Below, in pieces: positions 1,670 to 56,406 of a stretch of 63,019 nucleotides of DNA (positions are counted from its first letter, which is position 1; each line of letters starts with the position of its first letter). The stretch covers positions 1-63,019 of the forward strand of contig CAJFCJ010000063.1 of assembly GCA_904063045.1 (NCBI GenBank), given 5' to 3'. The DNA is from Dimorphilus gyrociliatus (taxonomy: Eukaryota; Animalia; Annelida). Below the pieces are notes generated by a model. The model was not told the DNA's origin. It did no database searches and was given only the letters and a program-made list of their open reading frames with translations. Both the position numbers and the translations under genes were made by a program.

Positions 1670-4600
1670 TGTACAACTTTGGTTATATTTTACATGCTTG
1701 AACTCTATTATTTTATGCAACATATACATGTACATCTTAAAACCTACGCAAGAAAATGCTATAACATTGCCAAACATAAGTCTGATTAGTCAGCTTGAAG
1801 GTTCATCTTTAATTACCAATAAAGGTTTGGCCAAGTTATAATTTAATTAACTGCCTAGGGTGTGGCCAAGTTATATTCAATTAACCTTCCTAAATGTTGA
1901 ACCTTGTAACATCCTGTACTAAAGATAAATATGAACTACACATTTCGGCAACTGTAAAGTGATGATTGGATGTCAGAGACAAACCTCAAAGTATATAAAT
2001 CCTCATTATTCTCATTTGGCATGCAGCTTCCATCTGGACCCAAGGACCTGGAAAATCATCTGGAAACAACCTCCACTGGAACCATCCATCTACTCCTCAA
2101 CATTGGAAGACAGTTTGGTAATTTGGCAACCTGCTATTACAAACTATCTACTCTGCTATTGAACTCTCATATTGTTACTTGCTTAAGTATTATTATTGCG
2201 AATAAACCATTTTAATTTAAACATTTGTTTAAAGGTTCGAGTAGAACCAGTATTGTTATAACTTGCAAACGCATAGATTTTGCCAGCAAGAGCAGTACAA
2301 ATTTGGCGCAGTCGACAGGATATTCTTTTGGTTTATTCAAAAGTTTTGAGAAAGTAAATATGGCAGAAGAAGGAAATGGAAACGCCACTGGGGCAGTTAC
2401 AGACTCTAACCCTTCAACCCCAGCAACTCCAACAATTACAATTCAGCCAGCAGGAATGTCAGAAAGGCAACAAAGACTAATTGAAGACTATGATAGATTG
2501 GTGAGTGAAATGAAAAGAAATCGAATCACAATTCCAACAGATCATGGAGATGGAACACATCACCCAGCACAGAACCCAAATGTTGATATCACAACAGTAA
2601 TTCAAGCATTAAGGGCTGCTTGGGACCGCCCTCAAAGAACTATTCTCAAGTTGTATGATGGAAGCAAGGAGTGTTCAAAATTCAAAGAAGACTTTAATCA
2701 GGCATGTTATGCTTATGGTTGGATAGGAGAAGATGTTGTGAAAGCAAATCTTTTAGATTATTTAACTGGTCCTGCAAAGGATTTGGTGTTGGCTCTGGAT
2801 GGAGAGCCTACTGTGGAGGAAATATGGAAAGCCCTCCATGACGAATTTGATCTAGATCCTTTGGAGTATCAGGAGAAATTGCTTAACTTAAAGCAAATGA
2901 ATGGCGAAAGTGTGGTTCAGTTTGTTAATAGAGCAAAGAAATTGATAAAGAGGTTTTCTCCACCTAGACCAATGGAACCACAATTGCTTGCAACTATGAA
3001 AGAAATAAAACTGATGGAAGTTTTACAAAGAGGATTACAACAGGATATTCTACATTTAGTGTACACCTTACATCCTAAATGTCAAACATTGGCAGAACTA
3101 TATGAGGCTGCTAAGCAAGCAGAAACTTCATTAAAACTAACTCAAAGAAAACCGATCACAATGGTGTCAAAATTGGAAACTCAACAAAGAAAAGAGACCA
3201 AAAAGACCCAGGTAATCAGAAAAGATGCTTCTACAGAAACCCCAAATTTCTGGAATAGAAAGCATGTACCTGACAACAAAAATGCTACTAAAGAAAAGTT
3301 TTCAAGCCAAAAAGTCCAAAAGTATGCACCAACTACAACAAATAGGTATTATAAGAAAAATCAACCAGCAAAGACAATACTGAAAGAGGAACCTAAGCTA
3401 CAAAAATTAGAAACATTAGACAATGAAAGCATGTCAGAAAACGACGAAGTTCAAGATATTCTCTGTTTTTCAGATAGTGACGAATCCACTTGTCAGCTGT
3501 TACAAAGCAAACAATCTGAGCGAAATGCTTCAACATTTATTGGACAATTTGAAACTAATACAGGTTTTAAGTTTGATGCCTTGATAGACTCTGGTAGTGA
3601 CAGATCTTTCATTTCAAAAAAGGTATTAAGACAAGTTCAAGGAAAAGCATCCTTCCCAGAACAAACTGTGAAAAATGCTAGAGATGCTTCAGGAAATAGC
3701 ATCGAGATATGTGGAGAAATCATTCTCAGACTTTATTTTAATGAAAAGATTATTAAACAACGCTTTCTGATCAACAAAATCATTACACAACAATGTATTA
3801 TTGGGTGTGACTTTCTACAACAAAATGGAGCTACCCTTGACTTTGGCAAGAGACAGATTATACTCCAGCCAGGTACAGAAAAGAATTACCCTGTTGGAAC
3901 ACAACACTTATCTTTCAAAGGGTTTTACCCAGTTCCTCTTATTATGAAAAAGAATGAGAGTCAAATACATACCCTTCAGACAACAATTGAACAAGAAAAT
4001 CCCGAGATGAAGAACAAAGTTACCCAAATTCTGGCAAAATATAAAGAAACTATTGCAGAAGACAGATTTGATATTGGCAATCCAGAGGTACCACCCTTGG
4101 AAATAACTCTTGAACCAGGTTCAACACCATATAGACAAAGGCCATATAGAATGCCTCCTCAAAAACAAGAAGAATGTAAGCAACAGATAGCTGAATTGGT
4201 AAAAAGCAAAGTTATTCAACCAAGCAAGAGCAATTGGGCTTCACCAATTGTTTTCGTAAGAAAGAAGGAAGGTAGTCTACGAATGTGTGTAGATTATAGA
4301 AAACTAAACAAAATGACAGTTAAAAACAAGTATCCACTGCCAAATCAAGATGATCTTTTTGACCATTTGGGAGGAGGAAATAAATTCTTTTCTACAATGG
4401 ATTTGACAAGTGCATACCACCACATTAACATCAAGAAAGAAGATAGGTCTAAAACAGCATTTATTACACCTTTTGGCTTGTTTGAATTTATTAAGATGCC
4501 TTTTGGATTAACCAATGCCCCTCCTCATTTTAGTTATGTAATGAATTCATTTGTGCTAAAGGATGTAAAGCATTTGTGCCTAAACTACCTTGATGACATA

Positions 4601-7600
4601 ATAATATTTACCAAGTCGCTGGACCAACATTGGGAAGCATTGGAGACCATTCTTCAACAGATTCAAAAGTACAATTTTAAGATTAAACTAAGTAAATGTG
4701 TGTTTTTGAAAGAACAAGTTCAATTCTTGGGACACATTGTATCAGAAAAGGGGATTGAAACAGATAAGTCCAAGACAGATAAATTATATAATTTACAGCC
4801 ACCAGTGTTTGCAAATTCACTACTAAGCTTTGTTGCATTTTGTGGCTATTACAGAAAATTTATACAAGATTTTGCAAGAGTAGCTAAACCTCTGTATATG
4901 TTAATGAAACTACATGGGAAAAAGGATAAATTGCAATGGACTGAGGAAGCCAAGCAATCATTTTTCAAGTTGAGAGATGCAGTAGTTAACCCTCCTGTAT
5001 TACAACTACCTGATTTTGCTAAAGATTTTCACTTAACAACAGATGCATCGAATGTAGCTGTAGGAGGAGTTCTTGAACAAGTTTATGTAGATGAGAATGG
5101 GAAGAAAACAATGAAACCCATTGCCTACGCTTCAAAACAATTCAACAATAATCAAATGAAATATGCAGCCTATCAAAAGGAAGCATTTGGGGTTTACTGG
5201 GTTGTAAAGAAATTTTTACATTACCTTCAAGACAAGCCATTCTTTTTATATACTGACCATCAGAGTCTAGTACAAACATTTAAGCAAAACAAATTGAATG
5301 TCAGCACAGCAAAATGGGTCATGGCTTTAATGGATTTAAAATTTACAATTAACTATGTGACAGGACGAAAAAATAGAGCAGATGCATTAACAAGATTAGA
5401 AGAATATACACCCCCAAGGAAAGTAACATTTGAAGAGCTAATTCATGGAAAGATCAAAAAGGAGAATTCTCCCTCTATTTCAGTTAAAATGGAACAGTAT
5501 GAACATACACCAGAGTTAACTTTTGTAGCTACCAGTGATAACAGTGAAGAGAAAATTGATTTGTCTTCTGTTGACTTACAGTCAGAGCAAGAAAAAGATG
5601 TGAATTTAAAATCAATTAAAGAATATTTAACATTGGATGGTCAGCTACCTATTCCTTATTTTGGAACTTTTACACCTTTCATAATGGAGATGTTTGTTCA
5701 CAAGGAAATGATCTGGATTATCCTTGAAGAAAGAAACATTCTGGTTTTACCTGACCATTTGATGCTAACTCTGCTCCCTAAATTCCATAAAAATAAAATT
5801 CACAATCACCATGGACCCAGAATGACATTACAAATAATTACAAAGACCTTTTGGCACCCAAAATTAAAGATTATGATTGAGAATTCAATAAAGGATTGCA
5901 CTTTGTGTGAACAAATGAATGGTAGGAGTAGAGTATACCCTTTGGTAGAAACCTTTCACCCTGCATCACCAATGGAGTTGGTAGCCATGGATATAATGGG
6001 ACCCTTACCCATGGTTAAGTCATACAGATTCATACTTGTGATAGTGGATCATTTCAGTAGATACACAGTTTTATATGCACTCAAACAGCAAACCAGTAAA
6101 GAAATTGCAAACCTTCTTTTCAACAGATTTTTTCCCATTTTTGGAATTCCAAAACAAATGTTGACAGATCAAGGAAGAAACTTTGTTGGTAAAGCTTTTA
6201 AAGAGTTTATGAAGGTATTAGGTATTGAGAAAATCCAAACAACAGCTTATAGAAGCCAGAGCAATGGACTAGTTGAACGAAGAAATAGAGAAGTGAGGAA
6301 GGAAATCAATAAATTAGTGGTGGAAGAAAATCAGCATAACTGGGTTGCAAACCTACCCTTGATTCAAGCATTTTTGAATCAATCACCTGTAGGAAGTACA
6401 AGACTACCACCCCAGGAACTTCTTTTTGGCACCAGCACAAGAACACTGATTGATGTAACAATGCATACTACCTCTCCTGAAACAAATGTACTATTTGTAT
6501 TCAATCACCAGCAGCAATTAGTACAGTTAAGAGCTACAGCCTTCTGTAAATCCATCATGGCAAAAGAACAATATAGGGAAAGAAAGAATAGAAATCTCAA
6601 TCTTCCAAAATATTTTGAGGTTGATGATGAAGTATTCTTAAGAAATGATGCTGCAAGAATTGCAATAACAAAAATCCCTTCTTTAAAATGGTTAGGCCCA
6701 TACCGAATAACAAAAGTCAATCATCAAAAGTGGATATATGAAATACAAATGGATGATAATACATGCAAGTTGGTACATGGTAGCAGATTAAGACTAGCCA
6801 ATGAATCTAATAAGTTGGAAACAGGGAAAGAAGCAACAACAATCTTTCACCTTGTGGAGAAGGAAATAACACACCTCCAATATCTTTCTCAGGTAGAAGG
6901 AAGAAATGACTTCCAATTCCGTTTGAAGAATCAAAAAGGCCAAGAAGTCATTGCCTGTGTGACACAGGAGCATTGAGATCCTTTATTACTGAAAAAGAAA
7001 TCAAGTTAATGGATGTTACAATTATGGATAAAGAAACAATTGGCTTACCAATTATAACTTCAGCTGATGGGAAAGCTTTAAAGCAAAAAGGAAGCGTAAA
7101 GCTGAATATCCAATTTGCTGGAGAAAGTATGGAACAAGAATTTATAGTTATGGAAAATCTAGACATAGCAATAATACTTGGTTGTGATTTCCTACAAACT
7201 GTGGGAGCAAACCTCAATTTTGAAGCTAAACAGTGTTCTCTCAAATTTGATAGAAGGAAAGGGAACCTGGCTGAAAGAATAAGGCAACCTCAACTAAACA
7301 AAGTCACTATAGCCATGATGGGACAGCATGACTCTTCATCAGAAAGTTCAGATAGTGATGACTCAGAGATGGAAGTTACTAATTCTGATACTGGTTATGA
7401 CACAAGCAATACTTTCAAAACAGACAGTAATTACAGTCTCAATGAACCTTCAAGCTCATCTGAAAGTGATGACACAGAAACAAATAATGAACTGGATCAA
7501 AATACAGATTCAGAGGCAAACATTATCTCTGATAGAGAAGATGAAATATCTAGTTCAGACGATGAGTCAATAATTATTGAAAGCGAAATTATTGATATAA

Positions 7601-10600
7601 CCCATTCGGATAATGAGTCAATAATTATTGAAGGTGAAATTATTGACATAACCCATTCAGATAATGAGTCCCTCATAGTGGTAGATTCATCCCAAGATGA
7701 GAAAGAAAATACAAGTGACACAGACAATGAGTCAGTCATATTTTTAGATGAGACTAAAATCATCTCTGAACAATTAGATTCCCAACAAGAAGTGGAACCA
7801 CAATATATAGAGTTAGAAGATGGAATAACTATCAGAGTGGAACAACAACACAAAATTTTCAACCATTCAACTATAGCCAACACAGGAAGAGCTAACATGA
7901 AACAGATGTTGTGGCTTCCACTAGTGATGACTGTAATGGTGATCTGTGGCTGCATCCACTCAATAACAGTCCCAAAACCATCCTACCAAGGTGCCCATGT
8001 TACAAGTGCAAACATTACCTTAACATTTAAACCACCGTTATACTTTTGTTCTAACCAACTACCAAGCCAGGCATTTGATCTAGCAGATGAGCCAACTTGT
8101 AATATAGAATCACAAGAAACCAAGACAATTACAGCTGATATCTATGAATTGAACTTGGAAGAAATTGAAACAAGAGCAGTAAAATGTCAAGTGTATCTAA
8201 GAACTAATTTTTACACTTACTATTTCTTTGGAGCAAAGAAGAGGAGGATTGTTAACTCAGTTATCAAAGTAACTCATGATCAATGCAGACAGATGATAAA
8301 AGACAAACGATCTTTTCAAGGAAAACCTTTAATGGTGAAAAGAAACACTTGGATCCACCAAGATCAGTTTCCTGCTGCCTACACATGGCCAACAACGACC
8401 AAGGTGCTGGAATACACCACAATTATCCAGTTTGGCAAAGCATATTGGCAACCTCCTAATATGAAAATTACAACTAATCTGGACTACCTGGAAGATTGTT
8501 TACCAGGGCAGTCCTATTGTGAAACAGAAGAGGCAATTATTGTCTTTAGGAACCTCAAGAATAATTACACACTTGGGCAACAATCACCATGGATAAAAAT
8601 TAGCAACAGAATTAGTTGTATCAAATTTGCTGGTCACTATTCTTGTCCAGGGTATTCTATTCTGGACATCCCTTATCAAGATAAGTTTATTGATGGAATT
8701 GGTGGTCCTGGAACAAAAGTACTAGTACCACTGGAGGAACAGAGTTTAATACAGGAAACAAGCAAGGAACACCTATACAATTTGCTACAATATCAGAAGA
8801 TTGGCAAAAATGAAGAAAAACGACTATTAAACTATCCCAATAAAGTTAAAGAACAAATTATACTATACAAGCGAAACAACCCCTTACCAAGTCTTAACCA
8901 ATGGTACAGAGAAACAAACACAAAGTATAAACTAATGAGAAATAAAGGCACACTCAAGGAAGTTGTGATATATCATCTACAACAACCCATTAGTCCATCT
9001 TACTGGGAGCTGGATAACTATTATATCCAAGAAATGCTGCAAGCAGTCAATTGGACAAGGGCAACAAGACAATCTGTCACGATTTCAAAATATGTATACA
9101 GTGAGAAAAGAATCAAAAAGAAGGTATTACCAACATTGGGCATATGGTATAAAGGACCACCAGCCAGAGAATTCAAGATTACCTATGAAGGAATTTATTT
9201 TACTCTACACATGAGAATGGCTAAAAAGCAGATGAAGAAGGAAGCAAAACTGAAACATAAGATAAGTAAAAACCCATACCACAAATTCCCATTGGAAATG
9301 AGAGAAGCTGCCCAAACATCTACCTTACTACATGGTATTGATTCAAATTTTAAGAATTTAAAAAAGTTTACCCAACAGCTGTCAAGTCTTCTCTGCAATC
9401 AATTTGTTCAAAGAAGCAGAATGATGGCATTACTAGCAAATTTGGATCCTCAATTGACCACAGTGTTAACAAATGAGTTGGGAATGCACAGTAGTCAGAT
9501 GGGAGAATTAGCTATAATTAAACAATGTTCACCAATAGCCTCAACAGAAGTAGTTTGTGACTTAAGCATGATAAAAAAGAATAACAAATGTTCTCAATTT
9601 TTACTTGTCACCATGAACAACCTGCTTTTCCAAGTAGAACCAGTTACTCATGTTTTACAGCAAGTCAATCCTGAAGAGATTACCTATAATGAGTGTAAGT
9701 CTAACAAGTTATTCTACAAAACAACTCACAACCCATTAAATCCTATAAGAAACCAACCAATGAAAGACAAAACGTATGTGTATTATTCAGAAAGAGGATG
9801 CAGATTTCACACTGTGTCTGCAAAATCCATGCAGTTACATATCCACAATCACCTTTCTGAACCAAAAATTGAAATTGCCAGATTAGCTGATCTACTCCAC
9901 CATGGGGTAAAGAAGGATATTGCATACCAGCACTCAAAAATTAAGCAAGTTATCAGTTCACTGGAACAGAAGCAGGCAAGGTATGATAACATGGTCACTG
10001 TTGCAGAGAAAAATGGCATTGTACCCAATTTATCTGGAATTAAAAAGTTTTTCCATAGTTGGTACTATAAACCTGGGAAAACACTTTATGTTATCATACG
10101 AAATATTTGTTTGAGTATTGTAGTGTCAATGGTATGTATCATCATTTTCAACTATATTATTGGAAGAAGAAAACAAAGAGAAGAAATTGCTACCCCAAGT
10201 GAGAGCACAGATAACTCTCCTGAAAACCCAAAACTAATGAAACAAAGTTGTAGCTTTAGTCAACATCAAACTAATGAAGAAGAACAACCACCTGTAATTC
10301 TCATTAAATCAAGATGAAGGGACTCATCTTCACAAAGAAGGGGGAAGTTGTACAACTTTGGTTATATTTTACATGCTTGAACTCTATTATTTTATGCAAC
10401 ATATACATGTACATCTTAAAACCTACGCAAGAAAATGCTATAACATTGGCCAAACATAAGTCTGATTAGTCAGCTTGAAGGTTCATCTTTAATTACCAAT
10501 AAAGGTTTGGCCAAGTTATAATTTAATTAACTTGCCTAGGGTGTGGCCAAGTTATAATTCAATTAACCTTCCTAAATGTTGAACCTTGTAACATCCTGTT

Positions 10601-24190: not shown

Positions 24191-24683
24191 TGGATTAGGA
24201 CTTGGGGTTAGGGATTAGCACAATCAGAAGAGCCTGGCAATCCCAAAATTTCACACACACTTGTAACCAAGATTTGGCTAAGGGTTTGTGTAGCTATTGA
24301 GGAGTTGCTATCTTGAGCAGAAGTTCCCCAGCCTAAGCTGTTACTGTATCTCCAACAAAAACACAATCACAAATTCTCAACAAGGGCAAAGAGAACCTGT
24401 GCTGCAATAAATAACAATGTCACCAATTAAAATCACTCACAATATTTTGGGACTAATTGTCCCTTTATCAAGTGAGACTGAAAGGCCACAGTCTAATCGC
24501 CACCAGAGTGATTAGGGTTAGGGTTAGGGTTTGCAAAAGGTTTTTTTTGACTAAATCAAAAAAGAGAAACAGGATTCTCACACTTCAAGAGTCCCAATTG
24601 AATTTGGGAAGCAGTCAAAGAAAAAATACACCAAAATCGACATTTAAAACAATTTCCCAGAGAAAAATTGTTTCAAAAAATTT

Positions 24684-24880
24684 TGTACTTTGTTGTATTG
24701 TAATAGCAGGAATGTCTGCTTCTTTTGAACAGTATTTGTCCTTTCCAATCATTTATCAACTTACCAAAGTACTCACACCACATAGAGCCTTTCAAGTTCG
24801 TCCACAAATAGTCTTAACAAATGTAATTTAGGTAGAAATAATTCAACGAAACACCAGTATTTCGGCCAAAGAATATATAT
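24684..24880 (-). repeat. Diverged element-B-family LTR fragment (R/U5 end)
   Basis: Starts TGTACTTTGTTGTATTGTAAT like 44982 and aligns to 44982-45180 (CCTTTCCAATCATTTA, AAGTTCGTCCACAAATAGTC, ACACCAGTATTTCG). Confidence 0.85.
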
Positions 24881-25150
24881 TCTATCAGTAGTCAGTCTGT
24901 ATTGGTGTATTGTCATTCCTAGTTGTTTTTTGGCATAACAAGGAAAGAGAAAGAGAAAGATTCAAATTAATCTGTAACTGAAAATATATTCTAAGACATG
25001 TTAATTTTTTGAAATATATTTAATCAATCAGATAAATTACATTCAAAATGAATACATTTCTTGTTAATTCTTGAGATATAAATTTTTCAGGAATCAATCT
25101 ACATTGTATTATCTAAATGAATTCTATAAAATACTACTATGAATTAAGGA

Positions 25151-29989: not shown

Positions 29990-30205
29990 TACCTTGGGAA
30001 AACCTTAAAGTATTTAAACACTCACTGTTCTGGCCCAAGTGGTGGCATCTCAATTTAATTATTGAAAAAAGATCACGTGGAAACAACCACAGATAAAGTA
30101 ACCCTTCTACACTCTTCTGTTGAATTCTAATTTGGTTATTAGGCAACCTTCTATTATGAATTATCTACTGTGGTTTGATACCATTTCTTGCTTAAGTATT
30201 TTATT
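29990..30205 (+). repeat. Diverged element-A-family LTR fragment
   Basis: AAACCTTAAAGTATTTAAA, TGGAAACAACC, TTTGGT.ATT.GGCAACCT.CTATTA, CTTGCTTAAGTATT are colinear with 1981-2192. Confidence 0.7.
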
Positions 30206-30436
30206 TAAAAAAAAGCCATATAGATTAAACACTTTGTTCAAAGTAAAGGTAGTACTTTCAAGAACATAAATTATTCAAAGAAAACTGGTATAAATTGAAT
30301 ATAGTTGTTATTTATTACTCTAAGATTGATATTTAGTATTAAAATAAATATCATTAAAAAGATTATTAAGAAGACTACAACATGGCCTGTACAATTTGTA
30401 ACAAAGAAGTTGTCATGTAATGCCATGATGATAGGA

Positions 30437-31915: not shown

Positions 31916-32289
31916 ATAAGTTGCATAAAAAATAGAGTTCAAGCATGTAAAATATAATGAAAGTTGTACACTAGTATTTGGAGGGTTACCTTCCAATTGC
32001 CATGGGGATGTCATGGAAAACATTTGCAAAATTTTGCTTTTACCCTAATCCTAATCTAGACCTAGGGTTTGTCTAACCATTTTCAATAGCCATAACTCTC
32101 AGATAGTATTCTCTTAACTAAATCAAAGCAATTGCTTAATTACTTTTCCTAACCTAATCCCAATGCAAAATCTCACCCCAAAAATACACCAAACTGGCGT
32201 TTTTAACAGCCCCTGTAAAACTATATCTAGATATTTACTAATTTATCAAATTCAAGTAAGAGGGACAAAATGGAATTACTCCTGAAAGA

Positions 32290-37959: not shown

Positions 37960-38170
37960 TGTTAATTAGGTATTAGAGGGCAAGCCTCAAAAGTATTTAA
38001 ACCATAATTGTATCTCATCTTATCATCTGAGAAGATTGTCTGAAAACAACTTTAGCCTTCTACTCTTCAGAATTGGATGTTAAATTTTGGCATAATTTGA
38101 CAACCTTCTACTACAAACTATCTACTCTTCCTTTCAACTTTTATATTGCTGATTTCAATTAAATATTTGT
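37960..38170 (+). repeat. Diverged element-A-family LTR fragment
   Basis: CCTCAAAAGTATTTAAA, CTGAAAACAAC, TCTACTCTTCA..ATTGGA, ATAATTTGACAACC, TACAAACTATCTACTCT are colinear with 1985-2190. Confidence 0.75.
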
Positions 38171-44030: not shown

Positions 44031-44981
44031 TTATCCAAATCTATTCTGTATTGTGTTTGTATTTCCAAAGTTTTTTTTGGCGGTAATCCTTTTAAAAAGA
44101 TTAGTGTAAAATTTCTTGATTTTTAATCTAATAGATGATTTCGTATAACCATGAAGAAGGGCATTTATTGTTGAATTTGAAACAATAATTACTGTAAATA
44201 CTTCTGTAATAATTTGAAATTCGTATCTGGAGAAGATTTTTCTCTCTTCCACTGCATTGTACTTAGTAATTGTTAATGTAGCTGGTAAAGCCCATAATAA
44301 ACAATTGATTATTAATAAGCATGCTAAAATTCGGATGCTACTCCCTTCAGATTTTATATTATTAGCGTTCGATACATCAGAAATTGCTTTTCTCTGTTTT
44401 CTTATCGCTCTTAATATAGGAATATACAATAAGAAACTGGTAAAAGCATTAGGTAAAACAGTAGAGAATGACCAAAAAAACATGTACGTAAAAGGAAAAA
44501 CATTGTGAGTTTCACATTGAAAAGTTATATTATGCTGCAAAATATATTCATATCTATTCCAGCCAATTGCAGTTGGAAGTAGACAAATGGTAAAATTGAT
44601 TAACCATATGCAAGAAAGCAATATAAAAGCTTTCTTAATTGTCCAAATTTTGTAAAATGATAAAGGTTTTACAACAGCCAAAAACTTTTCAAATGTAATT
44701 AGAGTTAATGTAAATGATGATACTGCAACTATCATAAAAATAATTTCATATGCTAAAAGACATTTATAATAGCTTAGGTCTTTACTATGAAATAGAATAA
44801 AAATGAATATACTTATTGAATATAAAATATCTGTAAAGGTTAGTGCTGTAACACCAAAATTATGTAATTTCCATAAATCTTTATTAATAATATGAATAAT
44901 GATTAAATTAAAATTTAAAATTAAACCTGCAAATTGGTTGCAGCTTGATATAACTGTTAAATAAATGTTGTCGAACACCAT
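44031..44981 (-). CDS. Rhodopsin-family GPCR, probably N-terminally truncated, abutting the element B 3' LTR
   Basis: Seven hydrophobic segments; LTFTD (TM2), ITFEKFLAVVKPL (DRY position), IGWN, Cys in ECL2, NSTINALLHG (NPxxY position). Confidence 0.85.
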   Translation of the reverse strand: MVFDNIYLTVISSCNQFAGLILNFNLIIIHIINKDLWKLHNFGVTALTFTDILYSISIFIFILFHSKDLSYYKCLLAYEIIFMIVAVSSFTLTLITFEKFLAVVKPLSFYKIWTIKKAFILLSCIWLINFTICLLPTAIGWNRYEYILQHNITFQCETHNVFPFTYMFFWSFSTVLPNAFTSFLLYIPILRAIRKQRKAISDVSNANNIKSEGSSIRILACLLIINCLLWALPATLTITKYNAVEERKIFSRYEFQIITEVFTVIIVSNSTINALLHGYTKSSIRLKIKKFYTNLFKRITAKKNFGNTNTIQNRFG

Positions 44982-45916
44982 TGTACTTTGTTGTATTGTA
45001 ATTGTAGGAATTTCTGGTTCGTCACAACTGTAATCGTCCTTTCCAATCATTTACCAACTTGCCAAAGTACTGGTCCAAATAGAACCTTTAAAGTTCGTCC
45101 ACAAATAGTCTAACAAAGGCAATTTCGGTAGAAATTGATTAACAAAACACCAGTATTTCGTCCAAAGAATATGTATTGAGTAAAATGAGCTTCTAGTTCT
45201 AAACAAGCTAGTTTAAACAACTAGCTGACGGTTAGAAAACTGAACTATCAACTGTTAATTTCGTAGGGTTTATATACTCTTTTAAGGGTTGATAGTTCAC
45301 AAATTTCAATGTTCACAAAAACAAAAGTAACATTTGAAGACAAAGAAAAGTTCTAAATATGGTCATGTTTTTATTGTTTTCCTCTTCTAAATAATAGTTG
45401 AATTTCGAAGGTTGGAGAGTTGCATAAGATGTAACAATTTTAGTAGGACAAGTCCAACAATCAAGAAAACATGTAGATTGTATATTTGACCATTTTTATA
45501 TTCTACCTTAATAATGATATTCAATTGATTGAGTTAGTAAATTTAGCATCAGCATATAAGGAGGAAGTATATCTGATTAATGCATGTTAAAAAGAACAGT
45601 ATTGTGTATACAATACTGTTGAATAGTGAATATAATCTAACCTTAGAATTTAAGCATAATTGATAATTAATTGAACTAGTTTTAGTTCGAAATCATAAAT
45701 TTATGGATTAATAAATTGTAATATTAATGCTAGGTTGCAAATAGCAAATATTCTTTATATAATTCAATAGGTTTTATTACTGCATAATGTGTATGCACTG
45801 CCCTATGCGAAACTAGGTCACTACTGCTTATCTTTATCAGTGCTATCTGCATAGTACAATACTGGTTCAATACTACTTCTCTATTGTAGAATATAGCTGA
45901 CGAATGTATGTGTACA
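44982..45916 (-). repeat. Element B 3' LTR (935 bp)
   Basis: Matches 55472-56406 with two substitutions found by eye; TATATAAA on the minus strand near 45270-45277. Confidence 0.97.
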
Positions 45917-45920: not shown

Positions 45921-45932
45921 TCCCACTCCTTT
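45921..45932 (-). promoter_or_regulatory. Element B polypurine tract
   Basis: AAAGGAGTGGGA on the minus strand, overlapping the env stop, 4 nt before the 3' LTR. Confidence 0.75.
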
Positions 45933-48360
45933 AAGACCTTGCTTCCACGAAAGGTCTAGGACTTGTGACAATTATGTTATCACCACTTTTTCTGAACATA
46001 GGATAATTTTGCAGTTCTATTTCTTCTGATTCAGCTGTTGGAGCTGAAGGTAATCTTTTTGTTTTTGTCAGTAGTTTAGACAGTCTGGTAAATTGAACTC
46101 TTTTCAGTTTTTTCTTCCAAATAAAGTAGATGAAGAATCCAATTCCAATCAAGAGTATAATTGGCAGAAGTGTGTCTATTAGTATTTTGAAAGGTTTTCT
46201 TATCCATGAAGAAAATAGATGTTGTGTTGGTGACAAGGCTGCATCAATTCCTAAATCATTTGCAAAGTTAATATGCTCTCTATGCTTAGTCAAAGTATCC
46301 TGTATGTATTCCAAAACTTGTTGTATCTGATAATGTTTCTTGCCCACATCTTCTTTTATACCTAGTTGTAATAATTCTGTGAGTCTGACAACTTCTAGTT
46401 TTGGTTCTTCAATTTGACTGTTGATTTTCATTCTGATTGATTGTGCTGCTGCTGTTTGGAACCTGCATCCTTTCCTTGTATAATAGATAAATGTCTTCTT
46501 GCCAGAATGTATGGCATATTGATTTTGTTCTGCATCCAAAGGATTTTTCTTGATCTTGAAGAGATGCTGAGTTTGGTCACATGTACCATATCTTATGTCT
46601 TCTTTTGTGATGTGGTAAGCATGATGAAGTATTGGATCAATTGAGAATAGGAGATCTTTATATTTGATCAGAAATTCTTTTGAACATAATCCATTTTTTG
46701 TTATAATTGTTGTGTCACAAACTACTTGAACAGTTTTTAATTCTGTACATGTATTGAGGGTTGTTAGATCTCCTAACCATGTACTATGGGTTCCATGTTT
46801 AGATCCAAGTATTGTTTGTAGTTGAGGTGATAGTGGTGTAAGTAGGGCTATCATCTTGTTTCTCATGATAAATTCTTTGCATAAAAGTTGTGAAACTTGT
46901 TTAAAAACTGTTTGTAAATTTTGAAAATTTTTGTCAATATTGTTTAGTAGTGCAGCTGTTCTTATAGCATCTTTTATATTTATTTGGTGGGATTCTGGAA
47001 TCTCTATGTTTTCTAATTGTTTCCTCTTCCATTTGTGATTTATTGGTTTTCTTTGTAAAAGTGTATATTTGCCATTTTCTGTATGAATTTGAAATTGTGT
47101 ATCTTTTGGGCTTTGATACCAAATGTTCATGTTTGGGAGTGGGTTGAAAGTAACTGGTTTTTTGTCCAATTCAAAATCTTGTGATCTTACTGGTCTGGCA
47201 GGTTTTAGCTTTGTTGTTTTCAGCATTTTTAGTATGTATTTGTTGTGAATATCCCAGATGTCTGGAGAAATAATTTCTTTGACAAACCAAGTCCTCACTA
47301 ATGGTGTTGCATGATTTTTTATCAGCATATGGTAGGTTTTGTCACCATCTCTATACCAATCATTATATGTTAAAATATCTTGTATTTCTGTGACATTGGC
47401 CTTTCTTAGTGATGATTTCTTTCCAATATATTTCTCCAATCTATTAACTTCTTTATTTGAAATGATCTTGTATTTTGTATCCTCTATTATTTTATTGTCA
47501 GCATAATTAGAATTTGTAAGATCAGTTCTAAGTAAGTCATATTCTTTCTGGGGTACCAATACTCTGGTACCAGGACCACCATATCCTTTGATATATCTGT
47601 CTTGGTAAGGTAAATCCATTATTGCATAGTTGGGGCAGGAAAAATATCCTCCAAGTTTTACACATTCCACATTATGGGAAACTATTTTCCATGGTGAAAC
47701 ATGGCCTAGAAGACTTTGGCCTTTTTCTGGATTAAATATAATGATTGAATCCAAAGTTCTACAAAATTTTTGTTTAATAGAACAGTCTTCTAAATATTCC
47801 AAATTTGTGGTTATTTTATCTTGACTTGGATTCCAATAAGCCTTGCCAATTTGAAGGATTGTTGTAAATTCTTCCACCACTGTGGTTCTTGGCCATTTGT
47901 AATTTGGTCCTTTGTTTTCATTATACATAAGAAGTTTGCCTTTTTCAATTAGGTTTTGTCCATTTAAGGTTTTGTGTGTGTATAGCATTGTTCTGCATTG
48001 TTTTTCACTTAAGGCAAGTGTTTGTTTTTCAATTCTGTGTTTCTTTGCTCCAAAAAAGTAATGAGTGTAGAAATTGATTCTTCTTTTCACTAAACACTTG
48101 ACAGCTTGAATTGCCAAATTGTCAGCTTTAATTTCATAGATGTTAGCTACAATTTTGATCATTTGTTTAGTTTCAAAGGTACATACTGGTTCATCTGCTA
48201 AATCAAATGATTGGTGTACTTGTTGTCCTTGACAAAACTGTACTGATGGTAGCATTCTTACAGTTATGTTTGCTTTTGTTATGGATACATTTGCTTGGAC
48301 CAAGTTTAAACAGCATATTGCTAACAGTGTATAAATTATTGATCCTCTGATAGGAAGCAT
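45931..48360 (-). CDS. env: Element B envelope glycoprotein
   Basis: Signal-like MLPIRGSIIYTLLAICCLNLVQA; shares ANIT..FC..Q.FDLADEP.C, YFFGAKK, TNLEYLEDC, PYQD..I.G.GGPGT.VLVP with element A env; TM LLPIILLIGIGFFIYFIW. Confidence 0.9.
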   Translation of the reverse strand: MLPIRGSIIYTLLAICCLNLVQANVSITKANITVRMLPSVQFCQGQQVHQSFDLADEPVCTFETKQMIKIVANIYEIKADNLAIQAVKCLVKRRINFYTHYFFGAKKHRIEKQTLALSEKQCRTMLYTHKTLNGQNLIEKGKLLMYNENKGPNYKWPRTTVVEEFTTILQIGKAYWNPSQDKITTNLEYLEDCSIKQKFCRTLDSIIIFNPEKGQSLLGHVSPWKIVSHNVECVKLGGYFSCPNYAIMDLPYQDRYIKGYGGPGTRVLVPQKEYDLLRTDLTNSNYADNKIIEDTKYKIISNKEVNRLEKYIGKKSSLRKANVTEIQDILTYNDWYRDGDKTYHMLIKNHATPLVRTWFVKEIISPDIWDIHNKYILKMLKTTKLKPARPVRSQDFELDKKPVTFNPLPNMNIWYQSPKDTQFQIHTENGKYTLLQRKPINHKWKRKQLENIEIPESHQINIKDAIRTAALLNNIDKNFQNLQTVFKQVSQLLCKEFIMRNKMIALLTPLSPQLQTILGSKHGTHSTWLGDLTTLNTCTELKTVQVVCDTTIITKNGLCSKEFLIKYKDLLFSIDPILHHAYHITKEDIRYGTCDQTQHLFKIKKNPLDAEQNQYAIHSGKKTFIYYTRKGCRFQTAAAQSIRMKINSQIEEPKLEVVRLTELLQLGIKEDVGKKHYQIQQVLEYIQDTLTKHREHINFANDLGIDAALSPTQHLFSSWIRKPFKILIDTLLPIILLIGIGFFIYFIWKKKLKRVQFTRLSKLLTKTKRLPSAPTAESEEIELQNYPMFRKSGDNIIVTSPRPFVEARS

Positions 48361-48383: not shown

Positions 48384-50199
48384 GAATTATGGAGAAAACG
48401 TCCACTGGAGAAAACGTCCACTGATTGGAGAAAACGTCCACTGGTCGGAGAAAACGTCCACTGGAGAAAACGTCCACTATGTGAAGAATATATTAAAAAA
48501 TACTTTTTCAAATTTAAATTTTTATTATTGATTTTGAGATATATCCAATACATTCCCATAATGCAATCACTTTTGGTAGCCATTTTGAAATCCAGACAGG
48601 AAACAGTTCTGGGATCTTCTATGTTTTTCATGGAAAGTGAATATTGTGCATATTTCATCTACAATTTTTCAGAATTTTTTGCAGTTTGAAATATATTTCA
48701 CTATTGAAAACCATCAGACAAAACACAAACTTTAGAATTGATATCAGTAAGTTATAGAATATTGTGTTGAAATGATTTATTTATAAATTAGCTTTATTTT
48801 TATAGCAGCCATTTTGTTTATCATTATTGTTAATTGTTTAATTTTTAAATTTACACAGTTGGTTATTGATAGAGATTCCAAATTGAACATGGCACCAATT
48901 TGTTACATTTGTGAAGAGAGAATATATGGAAGACAAAATCAAGAGAAATGTCAGCTTTGCTGTCATTTATTTAAAATACATAAAAAATGTTTGGATTATA
49001 AAGGTTTGTTTAAGTTTTTTGTCACTATCCTTCCTTACAAATATGTTTTTATATTTTTTCACAGATCAATGGCTTTTGCTTTTATGGGATCTAAGAGAAA
49101 GACAGCCTACAAGAAATTATTTAAGGTACAATAATTTTGCATTTTAAATTGAATAATCTAATTTGTTAAATTAACAGGCAATACAAGATTTAACAAATGG
49201 GCATAGCCCCAAAAAAGTTGTTGTAGACTTTGAAAAAGCTATTTGGAAAGCACTATCATTCACTTATCCTGAAGCAAACATTAAAGGGTGTGTTTTTCAC
49301 TGGACACAGGCAATATACAGAAAGATTCAAGTAATACTTTAATTTAGTATTTGAGGTCTAGATTTGAACTGACATATTTATTTCCAGGAATTAGGATTAT
49401 GTAAGATGTACAAGGAGAAAAAAGCTGAATATAGAATCATGAAGAAATTAATGGCATTACCATTCCTGCCCTCTGATCTGATAGAACCAACATTTAAGAC
49501 TATTAAAGAAATAAGTCCTATTGAAATGAAGTCTCTATTGGAGTACATTGAGACACAATGGATAAATGGATTTTATAAACCAGAGGTATGGTCTGTTTAT
49601 GGTGAGGCTATAAGGACAAAAAATGATCTTGAAGGATGGCATCACAGGCTTAACAAGAATCTTTGCTCTAACACTGCATTCTATTTGCTTTTAGATGAAC
49701 TGAAAAGAGAAGCTGATCTGATAAAGCTATATAAAAAATTACTGAGTGAAAAGAAAATTTGTAGACAGCAAAGAAAAGCATATCAGAATATTCAGAGCAA
49801 AATATTCAGCTTATGGGAACAATTTGAAATTGCCTCAATTACCTCCCTGGACTTACTTGATAAACCTTCTGACATTTATTCACCAGTTTAAAATACCTTT
49901 ATTCTTTAATGTTGTTACACTGTTGTCAATCATTCTTGTTATAATGCTTGTTTTTACTTAATCAATATATTAATATTTAAATATTTGTAATTCTTATTAT
50001 TCATTTTTTCCTGTCAAATTGCTCTAAAAACTCCATCTATCAAATATCTTATATCTTACTTTGAAGTTTTATAGTGGACGTTTTCTCCAGTGGACGTTTT
50101 CTCCAAGCAGTGGACGTTTTCTCCAAACAGTGGACGTTTTCTCCAGTGGACGTTTTCTCCAGTGGACGTTTTCTCCAGTGGACGTTTTCTCCTGTACCC
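48384..50199 (+). mobile_element. Internally deleted MULE with tandem-repeat TIRs, inserted at the pol/env junction of element B
   Basis: Perfect 9-bp TSD GGTGTTTCC (48375-48383, 50200-50208); 5 left and 7 right copies of the 16-mer AGTGGACGTTTTCTCC in inverted orientation; PHD-like exon (CYICEE..CQLC..HKKC) and MULE C-terminus (VVDFEKA, GCVFHW, ALPFLP, DLEGWHHRLN). Confidence 0.93.
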
Positions 50200-53100
50200 G
50201 GTGTTTCCTTACTGTCACTGTGTTAACTGTTATAGGTTGTTTGTTAGCTAGTCTTAGTCTACTAGCATGATAGAATTTTCTTTTATCTGCCAATATTTGT
50301 AATTCATACAAACATTTTGTAGTATCTGTAGCAGTTACAAGATATGGTCCACTCCATTTGCTTGTATTTATTCTGTTCATTCCTTGACCAATGTTTTCAT
50401 TTCTTATGTGTACCCAATCACCAATTTTGTAAGTTGGAGGTTTTCTTGTAATAGCTTTATTAACTCTATCTCTATATTCCTTCTTTTTTAGAACAGATTT
50501 GCAAAGTGCTGTTGCTCTAATTTCTTCAAGTTCATGTTTTCTATCAAATAAGAATTTTGTTGTTGGTTCTAATCTTGGAACTTCCATTAACAGGTCTAAA
50601 ACATTTCTATTCTTCAATCCAAATAATATTTCATGTGGGGTTTTGCCAGTGCTTCCAACTGGAATTTGATTTAAACATGTCTGAATTAATGGTAACTGTC
50701 TTGTCCAATCTGTTAATTGTTCCATAACTACATGTTTATGTAGTGCTCTACGAATTTCCAAATTCTTTCTTTCTACCATTCCATTACTTTGGCTATGGAA
50801 TGCTGTTGTTTTAATTTTTCGTATTCCCATTGATGTCACCATTTCTGTAAAGATTTCCCCAAGAAAATTCCTTCCTTGATCTGTGAGAATTTCTTCTGGG
50901 ATACCAAATATTGGGAAATAGTTGAAAAACAAATGTTTAGAAATTTCCTCAGCTGTTTGAGTTTTTAGAGGGAATATGTTGGTAAATCTGGACATGTGGT
51001 CTATAATGACAAGTATATACTTGTAAGAATCATGTCCAGTCAGAGGTCCCATTATGTCCATAGCTATTCTTTGCATTGGTAAAGTTGGGTGAGGTGTTTC
51101 AACCAACAGATGTTTGTTGCCTGGTGCTCTTAATTGCTCACAAAATTCACAACTCTTTATGTGATCTTTAATTGTTTTCTTTAGCTTTGGGTGCCAGAAA
51201 GCTTGCTCCAAAGTGTGAATTGTTATGTCTACACCATAGTGCTCAAATAGTTGATGTTGATGAATTTGTCCAAGTAAGTTGGTTAGAGTTGATAGTGGAA
51301 TTACAAGTAGTGGTTGACAGCCATTTAGATACCATACAAGGTCTTCTTTTACAAACATAGATTCAATAAAGTTTCCATATTCATTCAAAGACCCATTATC
51401 AATGTTTTCTCCTTCCAATTTGTCTACAACTTTCATTAGTGGAGTATCTAATACTTGTTCTCTATAGAAGTTTATTTCAACTGGTGTGATTTTTAGTTTC
51501 ATAATCTGGGCTTGGATTTCAGTTATGTCTTCATCATAATCATTGTCTAGATTGTCATCTAAACAATCATCTAATTCTTCTAAGTCCTCTGTATCAATAT
51601 AAAAGCATTTAAGCATATCCTTTCTTTCTGCTAATTGGGGAACTGTATTGCCATTTTGTTTTTCTTCATTTAATCTTTCCTTAAGTAAATTACGAAAATC
51701 AATTACTTCATCAGTTTCACCAATTCTTGATATCCAGTCTGCTCTATTAGTTCTTCCTGGTATGTATATTATTTCAAAATCCATATCCATAAGTGCCATC
51801 ACCCATTTAACAGTACTTGTATTCAGTTTGTTTTGTACAAATGTTTGTACCAAATTTTGGTGATCAGTGTAGAGAAAAAATTTCTTATACTGTAGATAAT
51901 GGGAGAATTTTTGTACTGCCCAATATACTGCAAAAGCCTCTTTTTGATAAGCTGCATATCTTAGTTGTGTATTGATTAGGAGCTTGGAAGCAAAAGAAAT
52001 TGGTTTTCTTATTTTCTTTCCATCTTCTTCCCATTCTTGTTCTAGAACTGCACCAACTGCATAATTAGAAGCATCTGTTGTTAAATAGAATGATTTAGTA
52101 AAGTCTGGCAGTTGAAGGATTGGGGGCTCTGTCATTGCATTCCTTAGTGTTTCATAAGCTTCCTCTGCTTTTTTTGTCCATTTCAGTTTTTCTGTCTTTT
52201 GGTGTACTTTTAATAATTCTCTCAAAGGTTTTGTGATTTTTGCAAAATCTTTAACAAATCTTCTATAATAACCACAAAATGCCACAAAACTCAACAGAGT
52301 ATTTGCAAACATAGGTAATTTGGCATCTTTTATTTTTTGAATCTTTTCAGGATCAGTTTCAATACCATTCTGTGTAATTCTATGACCAAGGAATTGAACT
52401 GATTCTTGTAAGAATGCACATTTGCTCAGTTTAATTCTGAAGTCTTTTTCCTTGATTCTTTCCATAAGTTTCTGTAGAGCTACAAAGTGTTCTTCCAATG
52501 TTTTGGTAAAAACTATAATATCATCCATATAATTAATGCAGAAGTTTTCCAATCCATTAATAACAAAATTTGCCATGATATAGCTGAAGTGTGAAGGTGC
52601 ATTTGCCAAACCAAATGGCATGCGGTTGAATTCAAATAAACCAAATGGTGTAATAAAAGCAGTTTTCTCCTTATCTTCTTCTTTAATTGGAATATGATGA
52701 AATGCACTTGTTAAATCCAATATAGAAAAATATTTGTGGCCTCCTCCAAGCTTATCAAATAAATCTTCCTGATGTGGGATTGGATAACAATTCTTTTTTG
52801 ATTGCTTGTTAAGTTTTCTGTAATCCACACACATTCTTAATGTTCCTTCTTTCTTTTTCACAAAAACAATGGGTGAAGCCCATTGGCTTTTGCTTGCTCT
52901 AATTAGACCATTTTCCAATAATCCATTTAATTGATCCCTGCATTCCTGCTGTTTGTTGGGTGGCAATCTGTATGGTCTTTGTTTGAAAGGCTTTATATCT
53001 TCCAATAATTCAATTGCCATTGGTGGAACATCTGGTGAACCAATGTCATTCTGATTTGTAGCAATAATATCTTCATAATTCTTTATCATTTCTTTTAATT

Positions 53101-54337
53101 CTTCTCTGTTCTTGTCAAGATTATTTTTGGACACATGTAAATAATTGTCAATTTCTAGTGTATTTGAATTAATATTGTGTACATTTTGATTAGACAAATG
53201 TTCAAATTCAATACTTTCCAACTGTAATTCTTCTATTTCAGGAGTAACTGGATTTTTCTTTTGTTCTTTTTGCACTTTGATAGTTATTCCATCTTCTAAT
53301 TCTATGTATTGTGGTTTCATTTCCATTTCCATAGCCAAGTCTTCAGTTTCTTCTTCAGAGGAATTTATGAGAATAACTGAGTCATTGTCAGACTTAGGTA
53401 TATTTCCAGTCTCTTCATCAGATGAGTCTATAACCATTATGGAATCATTGTCAGACTCAATTGTGTTACTGGTCTCTTCTTCAGATGAGTCTATAACAAT
53501 CATTGAATCATTATCAGGCTCAGTTATGTTATCAAGCTCTTCCTCAGATGAGTCTATAACAATCATTGAACCATGATCAGAATCAGTTGAATCACTAATT
53601 TCATCTTCAGATGAGCTTGTACCATTGATTATATCCAAATCTGAGTCTGGGCTGTGATCTGATTCAATACTTGTTTCTGTATCATAATTTTCAGAAGTAC
53701 TGGAACTTTCATCTGTGCCATAATTGCTATTTGAATCAAAACCATTGAATCCCTCATAAACTATGCTTGAACCATGAGTGTTGCTTGTATCATAGCCAGT
53801 ATCTGGATCAGTAACTTCCATTTCTGAGTCCACACTATCTGAAACTTCAGATGGAGTATCAAAAACTTCAGATGGAGTGTCAGAATCTTCAAAATACTGT
53901 CCCATCATTCCAACAGTTACTTTTTTTACACTGCCTTGTTTTCCAAATTTTGTTTGGTGATTTTCGTTATATTGCAAAAACTTTCTAACTGGTTGTCCTT
54001 TTCTGATAAAGAATGGAAGAGAAACTTGTTTTGTTGCAAAATCAATAAGAGCTCCAGCATTTTCTAAGAAATCACAACCAAGTATTATAGCCATATCTAG
54101 TTTTTCCATAATAAAGAATTCTTGTTCCATAATTCTTCCATTAAATTGAATATTCAGTTTTGTTTTTCCTTTTGTCTTTAAAGCATTTCCCTCTGCTGAA
54201 GTGATGATTGGTAAGCCAGTAGTTTCTTTCTTGATGAATTTAGAATCCATTAACCTGATTTCTTTTTCTGTAATAAATGACAAAAGTGCTCCTGAATCAC
54301 ATAAAGCAATAACCTCTCTTCCATTATGATTTTTCAT
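50200..54337 (-). CDS. pol: Element B Pol (PR, acidic spacer, RT, RNase H, integrase)
   Basis: LCDSGAL..AIILGCDFL; D/E/S-rich tract; YMDD; LTTDASN; DIMGP, TDQG, GMVERKN; KWSGPY. The last codons of the listed ORF are MULE TIR sequence. Confidence 0.93.
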
Positions 54338-55468
54338 TCAAAATTGGAAATCTTTTCTGCCTTTTACCAAAGAAGTACACTTAAAATGTGCGATTTTCTC
54401 TTCTTTGAGATTAAATATTGCCATTCTTCCTTTAGAAATTTCAGTTTCATTAGGTTCATCAGGTCCAACATGTATTAGTCTGTTAAAGCTGCCTTTTTCA
54501 TTATTTCCTGCATTTCCATTTCTTTGTTGTTGAAATCTATTTTGAGAAAAAGGTTTAAATGTATGTTCATTTTGATTTGAGTTACTCTGATTGTTGTCAA
54601 ATCTCCTTTTGTACTGTTTGAATTCATTTTCGCTTTCTTTTCTTGCATTATCAAAAAATATTTCTGCTCTTTTTGCCAATTTAATATACTGATTAACTGA
54701 GTTAATCTTTCCATCTTTTTCCACATGATTAACAATTTTTCCTTTAAGACCATTCCTGAATACAGTTAACAGTTGAAGTTCTCTAACTCTTTCAGTAACA
54801 CAAGCCATTTCAGTAGTATTGAATGGTAGGAATTTTTCCACAAGTTCTTTACTTCTTCTAACAAAACTTTGGACAGTTTCATCATTGAACTGTCTCAATC
54901 TATCAATTTCTTTTTTGTAAGCCATAGGATCTGGATTAAATTCTTCATCCAATGCATCCCAAATTTCATTTTCATTTGCCATGGAGGGTAAACTTTCAAT
55001 AACATCTCTGGCTCTTCCAGTAGTGTATTTTCTCAGCATTCGAACTCTTTTCTCTTCTGTATCCCAAAGGTTTAATTCACAAGCTGTTTGAAAGTTCCTC
55101 TTAAAGGCCCAAGTATCTTTGCTACCAGAATAGGGTCTCAGCAAAGTAGTATTAGGTTTCTCATTAGCATCAATTAGAAGACTTGCAATTGTCTTTTCCA
55201 AAGCATTATCTTGAATGCCATCATAACTGAATTTTGGTTGAGTAGGATCAGGATTAACCATACCTTCAGGAATTGTAGCTGCCCCAGTCATCAAATGGTA
55301 CTTTAAAAAGCTATTACCATCAACTTTGGCTCCACTACTTTTAATTCTCAACATTAATTCATTAATTTTTGAAAGATACTCATCTACTTCCTTGGCTCTG
55401 GCTTTGTCATTCTCATAAACCAAAATAACATTCATTGAAGTAGCATTGTGGGCTGTCGACTGCGCCAT
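54338..55468 (-). CDS. gag: Element B Gag (no CCHC knuckle), separated from pol only by an in-frame TGA
   Basis: PYSGSKDTWAFKRNF..W..LRKYTTGRARDVI..L+EEF.P..L.Q..DETVQSFV, a Gag capsid-like pattern also seen in element A. Confidence 0.88.
   Translation of the reverse strand: MAQSTAHNATSMNVILVYENDKARAKEVDEYLSKINELMLRIKSSGAKVDGNSFLKYHLMTGAATIPEGMVNPDPTQPKFSYDGIQDNALEKTIASLLIDANEKPNTTLLRPYSGSKDTWAFKRNFQTACELNLWDTEEKRVRMLRKYTTGRARDVIESLPSMANENEIWDALDEEFNPDPMAYKKEIDRLRQFNDETVQSFVRRSKELVEKFLPFNTTEMACVTERVRELQLLTVFRNGLKGKIVNHVEKDGKINSVNQYIKLAKRAEIFFDNARKESENEFKQYKRRFDNNQSNSNQNEHTFKPFSQNRFQQQRNGNAGNNEKGSFNRLIHVGPDEPNETEISKGRMAIFNLKEEKIAHFKCTSLVKGRKDFQF
55453..55467 (-). promoter_or_regulatory. Element B primer-binding site (tRNA-Ser type)
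   Basis: TGGCGCAGTCGACAG, identical over 15 nt to the element A PBS, starting 5 nt inside the 5' LTR. Confidence 0.85.
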
Positions 55469-55471
55469 ATT

Positions 55472-56406
55472 TGTACTTTGTTGTATTGTAATTGTAGGAA
55501 TTTCTGGTTCGTCACAACTGTAATCGTCCTTTCCAATCATTTACCAACTTGCCAAAGTACTGGTCCAAATAGAACCTTTAAAGTTTGTCCACAAATAGTC
55601 TAACAAAGGCAATTTCGGTAGAAATTGATTAACAAAACACCAGTATTTCGTCCAAAGAATATGTATTGAGTAAAATGAGCTTCTAGTTCTAAACAAGCTA
55701 GTTTAAACAACTAGCTGACGGTTAGAAAACTGAACTATCAACTGTTAATTTCGTAGGGTTTATATACTCTTTTAAGGGTTGATAGTTCACAAATTTCAAT
55801 GTTCACAAAAACAAAAGTAACATTTGAAGACAAAGAAAAGTTCTAAATATGGTCATGTTTTTATTGTTTTCCTCTTCTAAATAATAGTTGAATTTCGAAG
55901 GTTGGAGAGTTGCATAAGATGTAACAATTTTAGTAGGACAAGTCCAACAATCAAGAAAACATGTAGATTGTATATTTGACCGTTTTTATATTCTACCTTA
56001 ATAATGATATTCAATTGATTGAGTTAGTAAATTTAGCATCAGCATATAAGGAGGAAGTATATCTGATTAATGCATGTTAAAAAGAACAGTATTGTGTATA
56101 CAATACTGTTGAATAGTGAATATAATCTAACCTTAGAATTTAAGCATAATTGATAATTAATTGAACTAGTTTTAGTTCGAAATCATAAATTTATGGATTA
56201 ATAAATTGTAATATTAATGCTAGGTTGCAAATAGCAAATATTCTTTATATAATTCAATAGGTTTTATTACTGCATAATGTGTATGCACTGCCCTATGCGA
56301 AACTAGGTCACTACTGCTTATCTTTATCAGTGCTATCTGCATAGTACAATACTGGTTCAATACTACTTCTCTATTGTAGAATATAGCTGACGAATGTATG
56401 TGTACA
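55472..56406 (-). repeat. Element B 5' LTR (935 bp)
   Basis: Direct repeat of 44982-45916, followed by the PBS on the minus strand. Confidence 0.97.

Follow-up and report, generated by a model that had tools for sequence, protein, structure and literature searches.

The window analysed here is a stretch of 63,019 nucleotides of contig CAJFCJ010000063.1 from the annelid Dimorphilus gyrociliatus. It contains two long terminal repeat (LTR) elements, element A on the forward strand (1670-10983) and element B on the reverse strand (56406-44981). With PR for protease, RT for reverse transcriptase, RH for RNase H, IN for integrase and env for the envelope gene, A has the order gag-PR1-RT-RH-IN-PR2-spacer-env and B the order gag-PR-spacer-RT-RH-IN-env. 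Element A is chimeric, as a first-pass annotation of the sequence had proposed: identity, trees and synonymous sites show that its second protease, PR2, and the spacer behind it have a recent common ancestry with the pol of B. We consider it somewhat more probable than all other courses taken together that a 1.06-kb block of protease and spacer alone was copied from the pol of a B-like relative into A. The env of A is likely its own and was probably not copied with the block.

At the DNA level the block extends from about 6797 to about 7855 in A and from 54463 to about 53257 in B. The first-pass annotation had let the homology start at the motif IF(H/N)L.E. This motif begins at 6842 in A and at 54418 in B, and its position stands; the likeness of the DNA, however, sets in about 45 nt further upstream, at about 6797. 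At the other side the homology reaches the end of the spacer, as had been stated, with the motif PQYIELEDGITI present in both elements (7798-7833 in A, 53314-53279 in B). Past this motif the two elements part in the way described before, B into a linker and RT, A into the leader of env. The 5' edge of the block is exactly where the likeness of A to the B integrase stops, and the 3' edge lies about 14 codons before the env Met at 7897. Both ends, around IF(H/N)L and PQY-IEL, are conserved, the 3' end fully, over 12 residues within a fast-changing spacer. A weak look-alike of IFHL at both block ends in A and an 11/14 match at the 5' junction were also seen and were judged to be chance in adenine-rich DNA.

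PR2 and the B protease are identical at 69 of 102 aligned positions. An ungapped comparison from the LCD motif gave 67 identities in 100, which upholds the likeness claimed earlier but not the exact count of 70. PR1, the protease that A has in the usual place, is far less similar, as had also been claimed (37/106 to the B protease, 29/96 to PR2). The spacers share 99 of 182 residues (54%). Their alignment scored 405, compared with a maximum of 111 among 300 shuffles, which indicates homology and not just similar composition.

Amino acid identity alone does not set the block apart, as the RT core (105/162) and RNase H (88/129) are equally high. It is the synonymous sites that single it out. Synonymous divergence (dS) was determined with a purpose-written maximum-likelihood codon model with grid intervals. 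Between A and B, dS is 1.5 (1.0-2.0) for the block, at least 10 for both RT-RH and IN, at least 6 for gag and for env, and at least 4 for PR1 against the B protease. In the block, 17 of 55 four-fold sites are different between the two elements, compared with 52/85 in RT-RH (p=0.0005) and 34/50 in IN (p=0.0002).

Of the 50 eligible pols, 24 entered the trees of protease and RT, namely the 16 with the best scores and 8 chosen by hand. In the tree with the 24 outside proteases, PR2 and the B protease pair with a support of 100/100; the RTs of A and B are sisters (support 99). A grouping of PR2 with PR1, named in the first-pass annotation as the sign of an internal duplication, was rejected in the approximately unbiased (AU) test (p=0.004). 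A clade of PR1, PR2 and the B protease was not rejected (p=0.43). PR1 scores 150 against the B protease and at most 133 against any of the 50 outside proteases. It is thus nearest to the B protease, consistent with vertical descent of PR1 and the B protease and with PR2 being the copy that moved. The branch of PR2 is longer than that of the B protease (0.53 versus 0), as expected of a moved copy, albeit without significance in the site count (9 versus 3, p=0.15). B itself is not the donor, given the dS of about 1.5. A protein search with the PR-spacer part of B matched only P0001 among 7,970 scored candidates. P0001 is a second B-type gene model and also runs from spacer to RT; P0011, a second A-type gene model, links the RT linker of A, an env piece and the LTR. 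These two gene models, both from Dimorphilus gyrociliatus, are the only named close protein relatives. The elements matched in a search with pol were all distant (at most 43% identity), a word search with env gave no match, and locus searches with env and with PR-spacer gave no relative in viral or metagenome contigs.

Several points weigh against a transfer of protease and spacer alone from a B-like pol into A. Such an insertion requires two crossovers at one point. The distance from protease to RT is 344 residues in B but 68-234 in 50 other pols, which indicates that the spacer is an addition in B too; the direction hence rests on parsimony and on the non-significant rate test. The ratio of non-synonymous to synonymous divergence (dN/dS) is about 0.19 across the block and the catalytic motifs are retained, yet the low ratio may have accrued in an unsampled donor and would then be uninformative on selection in A. 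Other points concern env. Its four-fold sites differ at 37 of 84 positions where 51 are expected from permutation (p<0.001); they are unsaturated, unlike those of RT-RH and IN, and do not differ significantly from those of the block (p=0.15, or 0.07 with two-fold sites included). The N-terminal half of env alone has a dS of 3 (2.5-20), and the tree of this half does not resolve A, B and P0003. Finally, the pol of P0001 is 89-94% identical to that of B whereas its env piece matches at 26 of 45 positions. This suggests env exchange, although the model could be a fusion of neighbouring elements. A link of the B env to A may have been masked by such an exchange within B.

The foremost alternative is a transfer in the opposite direction, which we hold to be unlikely, the direction from B to A being the likelier one. 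The two-protease layout would then be the older one, the spacer would have arisen between PR2 and env in the lineage of A, and B would later have swapped its own protease for PR2 and spacer. The outlying protease-RT distance of B, which has a linker of normal length after the spacer, fits this course. The protease N-termini fit it as well: the 45 residues before the catalytic Asp of B do not match the N-terminus profile of the outside proteases (108 of 300 shuffles scored as well), whereas the N-terminus of PR1 does (4 of 300). A chromodomain has moreover been reported for the end of the A pol (accessible text of PMC13524379); should the 5' part of the block be such a domain, a position behind an integrase would be its proper one. 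No chromodomain signal was however obtained with Pfam, with PDB sequences or with a profile of seven sequences. The course from A to B also needs three events instead of two and leaves the origin of PR2 unexplained, and the longer branch is on PR2 and not on the B protease. Furthermore, the related envs P0003, P0005 and P0013 open with a Met and leader of their own and not with a fused spacer.

The first-pass annotation had counted env to the transferred block. By its account, one template switch onto a deleted or spliced B-like RNA gave PR-spacer-env. On this model the env of B would since have been replaced or have evolved very fast. Mechanistically this is the simplest course, with one deletion and one switch, and the residual four-fold likeness of env, which is absent in RT and IN, speaks for it. 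Between copies of one type, env pieces are more diverged than pol, and env recombination among the elements of one host is inferred in the accessible text of PMC13524379. We nevertheless rate it slightly below the transfer from A to B. The dS interval of env (at least 6) does not overlap with that of the block; the two envs are 26-46% identical, and with 35% overall they are less conserved than the low-complexity spacer with its 54%; and the LTRs are unrelated except for their ends. HMMER gave 12 relatives of env, which are fragments without context. P0002 is 62% identical to the env of A and 34% to that of B. P0003 (50% to B, 43% to A), P0004 (42% and 33%) and P0009 (42% and 29%) are nearer to B, and all three are closer to the B env than the A env is. 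In the tree of the C-terminal half, A groups with P0002 (98/99) and B with P0004 and P0009 (84/86); the env trees had 9 rows each, with P0011 omitted. Thus dS and the C-half tree place env most likely outside the event that moved protease and spacer, and on this point the annotation was not supported in its stated form; an older exchange of env may have taken place. A deleted or spliced B-like product joining the spacer to env was not seen, the reads having been examined for A and not for B.

It is improbable that a third, unsampled lineage of the Dingle family, to which A is assigned below, donated the block to both elements. The block is indeed out of the ordinary in both hosts and its dS of about 1.5 means that B was not the donor, but two captures would be needed and no third carrier was found, neither in the protein and locus searches nor at 88% identity in the sequencing runs X2 and X3. 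An origin of PR2 by internal duplication of PR1 and a misassembled layout are both refuted, even though A does contain errors of the assembly type, namely gaps in the LTRs and the frame break: the AU test rejects PR1 with PR2, the block of A is only 68-76% identical to that of B, and the junctions are crossed by contigs of three runs.

In the window, a frame break is present within PR2, near 6950-6960, which splits the element into open reading frames at 2216-6976 and 6910-10317. Contigs from three of four read runs cover this site and none shows the break; the fourth run has no cover there. The break is therefore probably an assembly error, and a single long frame from gag to env can be inferred. 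In X2 (6029-9257) and X3 (3745-9322), two runs that may be the source of the assembly, integrase, PR2, spacer and env are spanned by one contig each, with flat depth throughout. In X5, a run of a different study, a contig extends from RT through integrase and PR2 to the end of the spacer. With contigs of three runs across the junctions, the layout of the block is not a misassembly. No second contig on the block was found at 88% identity or more in X2 or X3, where the filter drops some records, and a close donor thus did not come to light.

The reads also yielded some observations beside this question. Lower-depth contigs of X5 are about 88-90% identical to A on 7629-7762 (spacer) and 7860-8614 (env) and by their sequence appear to be a diverged A-type copy, the pieces of which were seen separately. 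Contigs of X5 skip three stretches of 59-66 nt (6989-7048, 9671-9729 and 10602-10667), each bounded by GT...AG on the minus strand; one of them lies inside PR2 on the main contig. The likely explanation is splicing of antisense transcripts across element A, X5 being a run of unrecorded kind. The median host intron is 66 bp according to the accessible part of PMC7854359. The letter-converted run X6, with mostly G-to-A differences and short contigs, was left out; one of its contigs joins the two flanks of A, which may reflect an empty site or a paralogue.

LTR elements are well known to switch templates between RNAs that are packaged together. For the favoured transfer of the block from a B-like pol into A, recombination between co-packaged A-like and B-like RNAs with the same primer-binding site, presumably a tRNA-Ser-like one, and the same LTR ends would have produced the copy. 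The claim of shared termini made before applies to the 15-nt primer site and the LTR ends TGTACA...AGTACA but not to the remainder of the LTRs, which is unrelated: nothing common was detectable beyond these ends, apart from one match of 25 nt. The insertion would have kept the frame, leaving gag-pol and env in one frame of about 2,650 codons, and A would still replicate by means of its complete PR1-RT-RH-IN. The ends of the block, which we take to resemble protease cleavage sites, could act as such, on one side freeing the integrase and on the other exposing the env leader. In B the same ends would free protease and RT. Probably the block persists because these conserved ends would be cleavable. 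Alternatively, env could be initiated at its own Met (7897). Once released, the spacer would by prediction be disordered, and it may bind SUMO. The published count of seven near-identical copies implies that the block does not stop amplification.

PR2 (6797..7260, plus strand, including about 45 upstream residues) matches the domain RVP_2 at 27.3 bits (cut-off 20.3) and has the D-T-G motif, the flap and the G-x-D-F-L motif in the form ILGCDFL. We consider it an even chance that PR2 has enzymatic activity in A. The spacer (7261..7855, plus strand) is acidic and rich in Ser and Thr (26-28% Asp/Glu, 25% Ser/Thr in composition) and contains the conserved motif DTGYDT at 7387-7404, which we assume to be beta-TrCP-degron-like and which is kept in both elements (p=0.04 and 0.11). 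In both spacers tandem hydrophobic cores are followed by acidic, Ser-rich tails. B has four such units of the form M/I/V-I-V-I-D/N-S-S-E; in A the cores are IIDIT at 7588 and 7639, LIVVDSS at 7672 and VIFLDE at 7735. A strict pattern of the type of SUMO-interacting motifs (SIMs) matched three times in B, compared with 0.20 times in shuffles (p=0.0006), and twice in A, compared with 0.34 (p=0.04), where the patterns were set only after the sequence had been inspected and the repeated units arose from one another by tandem duplication. The double occurrence of IIDIT in A has a p of 0.0004 against shuffles. The plain hydrophobic-core pattern was not enriched in the spacers (p=0.22 and 0.36), and the ESM Atlas gave no usable match for the spacer.

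In the accessible parts of the respective papers, the description of SIMs fits the cores (PMC8430037), tandem SIMs are said to give avidity for SUMO chains (PMC3901395), HIV-1 integrase is found to carry SIMs (PMC10144533), and in flies silencers of the piRNA pathway are recruited to transposons in a SUMO-dependent manner (10.1101/533091). RNF4, PIAS1 with its VIDLT core, which IIDIT resembles, HSV-1 ICP0 and HIV-1 integrase likewise combine a hydrophobic core with an acidic or Ser/Thr flank, in low-complexity repeats. Different from these tandem SIM regions, the spacer has no RING domain and no alignable homology to them. We tentatively propose that the spacer could bind SUMO, but regard this as doubtful. 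More speculative, and unlikely as a whole, is a reading of the block as a self-releasing anti-silencing cassette, made up of a protease with its own cut sites, a SUMO-binding array and a degron-like D-T-G-x-x-T, in which the spacer would soak up SUMOylated transposon-silencing complexes or mark them for destruction. If this were true, the cassette would be valuable enough to pass between two deeply split lineages and to be kept at two polyprotein sites. If the spacer binds SUMO, it would be a candidate for a transposon-encoded counter to SUMO-dependent silencing; if it does not, the matter reduces to an unusual, local recombination event confined to one worm family.

Apart from the block, element A has the parts of a Ty3/gypsy retrotransposon on the plus strand. 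The 5' LTR (1670..2299, with the ends given above) and the 3' LTR (10349-10983) are identical at 629 of 630 aligned bases; beside the 1 mismatch, there are 5 gaps of one base each. The element is flanked by a target duplication of 4 bp, GTAG. The 15-nt primer-binding site (2304..2318) is identical to that of B and is given at the same place in the accessible supplement of PMC13524379. It is followed by gag (2360..3568), which is 32% identical to the core of B gag, and by PR1 (3569..3871), a retropepsin with D-S-G and with a typical gap of 89 residues to RT. RT and RNase H (4013..5401) were recognized by domain match. The integrase (5750..6805) ends with RLRLAN, where its likeness to the B integrase ceases. 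Env (7897..10317) is in frame with PR2 and spacer and has its own Met, a leader and a C-terminal membrane anchor, both of which fit hydrophobic peaks; a polypurine tract (10334-10348) precedes the 3' LTR. With gag followed by PR-RT-RH-IN, LTRs, primer site, polypurine tract and target duplication, A is by its layout an env-carrying Ty3/gypsy LTR retrotransposon (Metaviridae).

The env of A is predicted to be a class III fusogen similar to gB and rhabdovirus G. With its position behind pol, its leader, this fold and the anchor it has the features of an errantivirus env. A predicted model with a mean predicted local distance difference test score (pLDDT) of 56 matched gB at E 1e-9, with low TM-scores, and rhabdovirus G was found as well. 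In the ESM Atlas, env came out at 0.95 to rhabdovirus/Monjiviricetes glycoprotein clusters, a score of low recognition value, and its homologue P0005 matches the Pfam domain Rhabdo_glycop_FD. Folding from the single sequence reached a pLDDT of only 35 and was of no use.

Element B lies on the minus strand and likewise shows gag, the order PR-RT-RH-IN, LTRs and the primer site of Ty3/gypsy elements. Its 5' LTR (55471..56406) of 936 nt is followed by the primer-binding site, which is itself in frame with gag, with an ATG ahead (55452-55468). The counterpart of the block, consisting of the gag tail, protease and spacer, is found at 53257..54463, and linker, RT, RNase H and integrase at 50240..53256. 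An in-frame TGA at 54338-54340 in the N-terminal part of the protease, where A has a sense codon, may be damage or a read-through signal. Between integrase and env (45931..48360) an insertion of 1.8 kb (48384..50199) is present, with 9-bp flanking direct repeats and tandem-repeat terminal inverted repeats, features which we take to be Mutator-like; Pfam gave no match for its two open reading frame pieces. The 3' LTR (44981..45916) is identical to the 5' LTR at 934 of 936 positions. It stops exactly at the ATG of an intronless reading frame for a seven-transmembrane (7TM) receptor (44031-44980, minus strand), and the flanks of B have no matching target duplication. Together, this suggests recombination between copies or a rearrangement.

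Elsewhere in the window, a Pfam-type domain scan gave 7TM receptor, TIR, PAN and sacsin domains, which mark the DNA as that of an animal. Sacsin-like reading frames surround element A (279-1205 and, on the minus strand, 10940-19489). Scattered at 24682-24881, 30131-30243, 31916-31973, 32330-32521 and 38056-38148 are fragments left over from LTRs of both the A-like and the B-like kind and from the end of a B-like env. A Tc1/mariner element, which has inverted repeats and contains a DDE_3 frame, is located at 59178-60848.

Element A is the published Annelida_Polychaeta_Dgyr_errantivirus_1, for which the accessible part of PMC13524379 gives the same coordinates for LTR and primer site, an env of HSV/gB type and 7 copies at >98% identity. 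The paper depicts errantiviruses with one protease, and the word occurs once in its main text. It reports a chromodomain at the end of the pol of this element, an outlier in its clade. In our searches this region had no Pfam match at E 10 and no match to PDB sequences; with the profile of seven sequences 166-169 of 200 shuffles scored equally. A profile match and an aromatic cage (V-K-W, W-E-P) would be expected of a chromodomain. Our checks are based on sequence whereas the published call is based on structure. The first reading frame of the window ends with the 5' part of the block, cut at the frame break, and we suspect that the published chromodomain is the start of PR2; our finding thus puts that call in question. 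By host, layout and supplement row, A is provisionally assigned to the Dingle family, which according to the accessible text of PMC7854359 is likewise a Ty3/gypsy LTR element with a gB-like env downstream of the integrase. A second protease is not mentioned in the accessible text of either paper, nor a spacer in that of PMC7854359; figures or deposited sequences may show one. A literature search for gypsy elements with two proteases or with SIMs, which did not extend to closed journals and figures, gave nothing relevant and no description of such an architecture; one match on two proteases (PMC11836539) concerns clotting factors.

Ordinary Ty3/gypsy pols have the order PR-RT-RH-IN, as do the first frame of A and element B. 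Among 120 database pol proteins, 72 have a protease match. Three of these have two proteases, each followed by its own RT, as in joined gene models. Unlike A, none of the 72 has a lone protease behind the integrase, and none of 50 measured pols has a gap between protease and RT as long as that of B. In element A, a Ty3/gypsy element that inserted recently and is present in several copies, two proteases occur together with what is probably a single frame reaching from gag to env. A segment of pol has here been exchanged between lineages with saturated RT and integrase, an event of the kind that single-gene trees miss.

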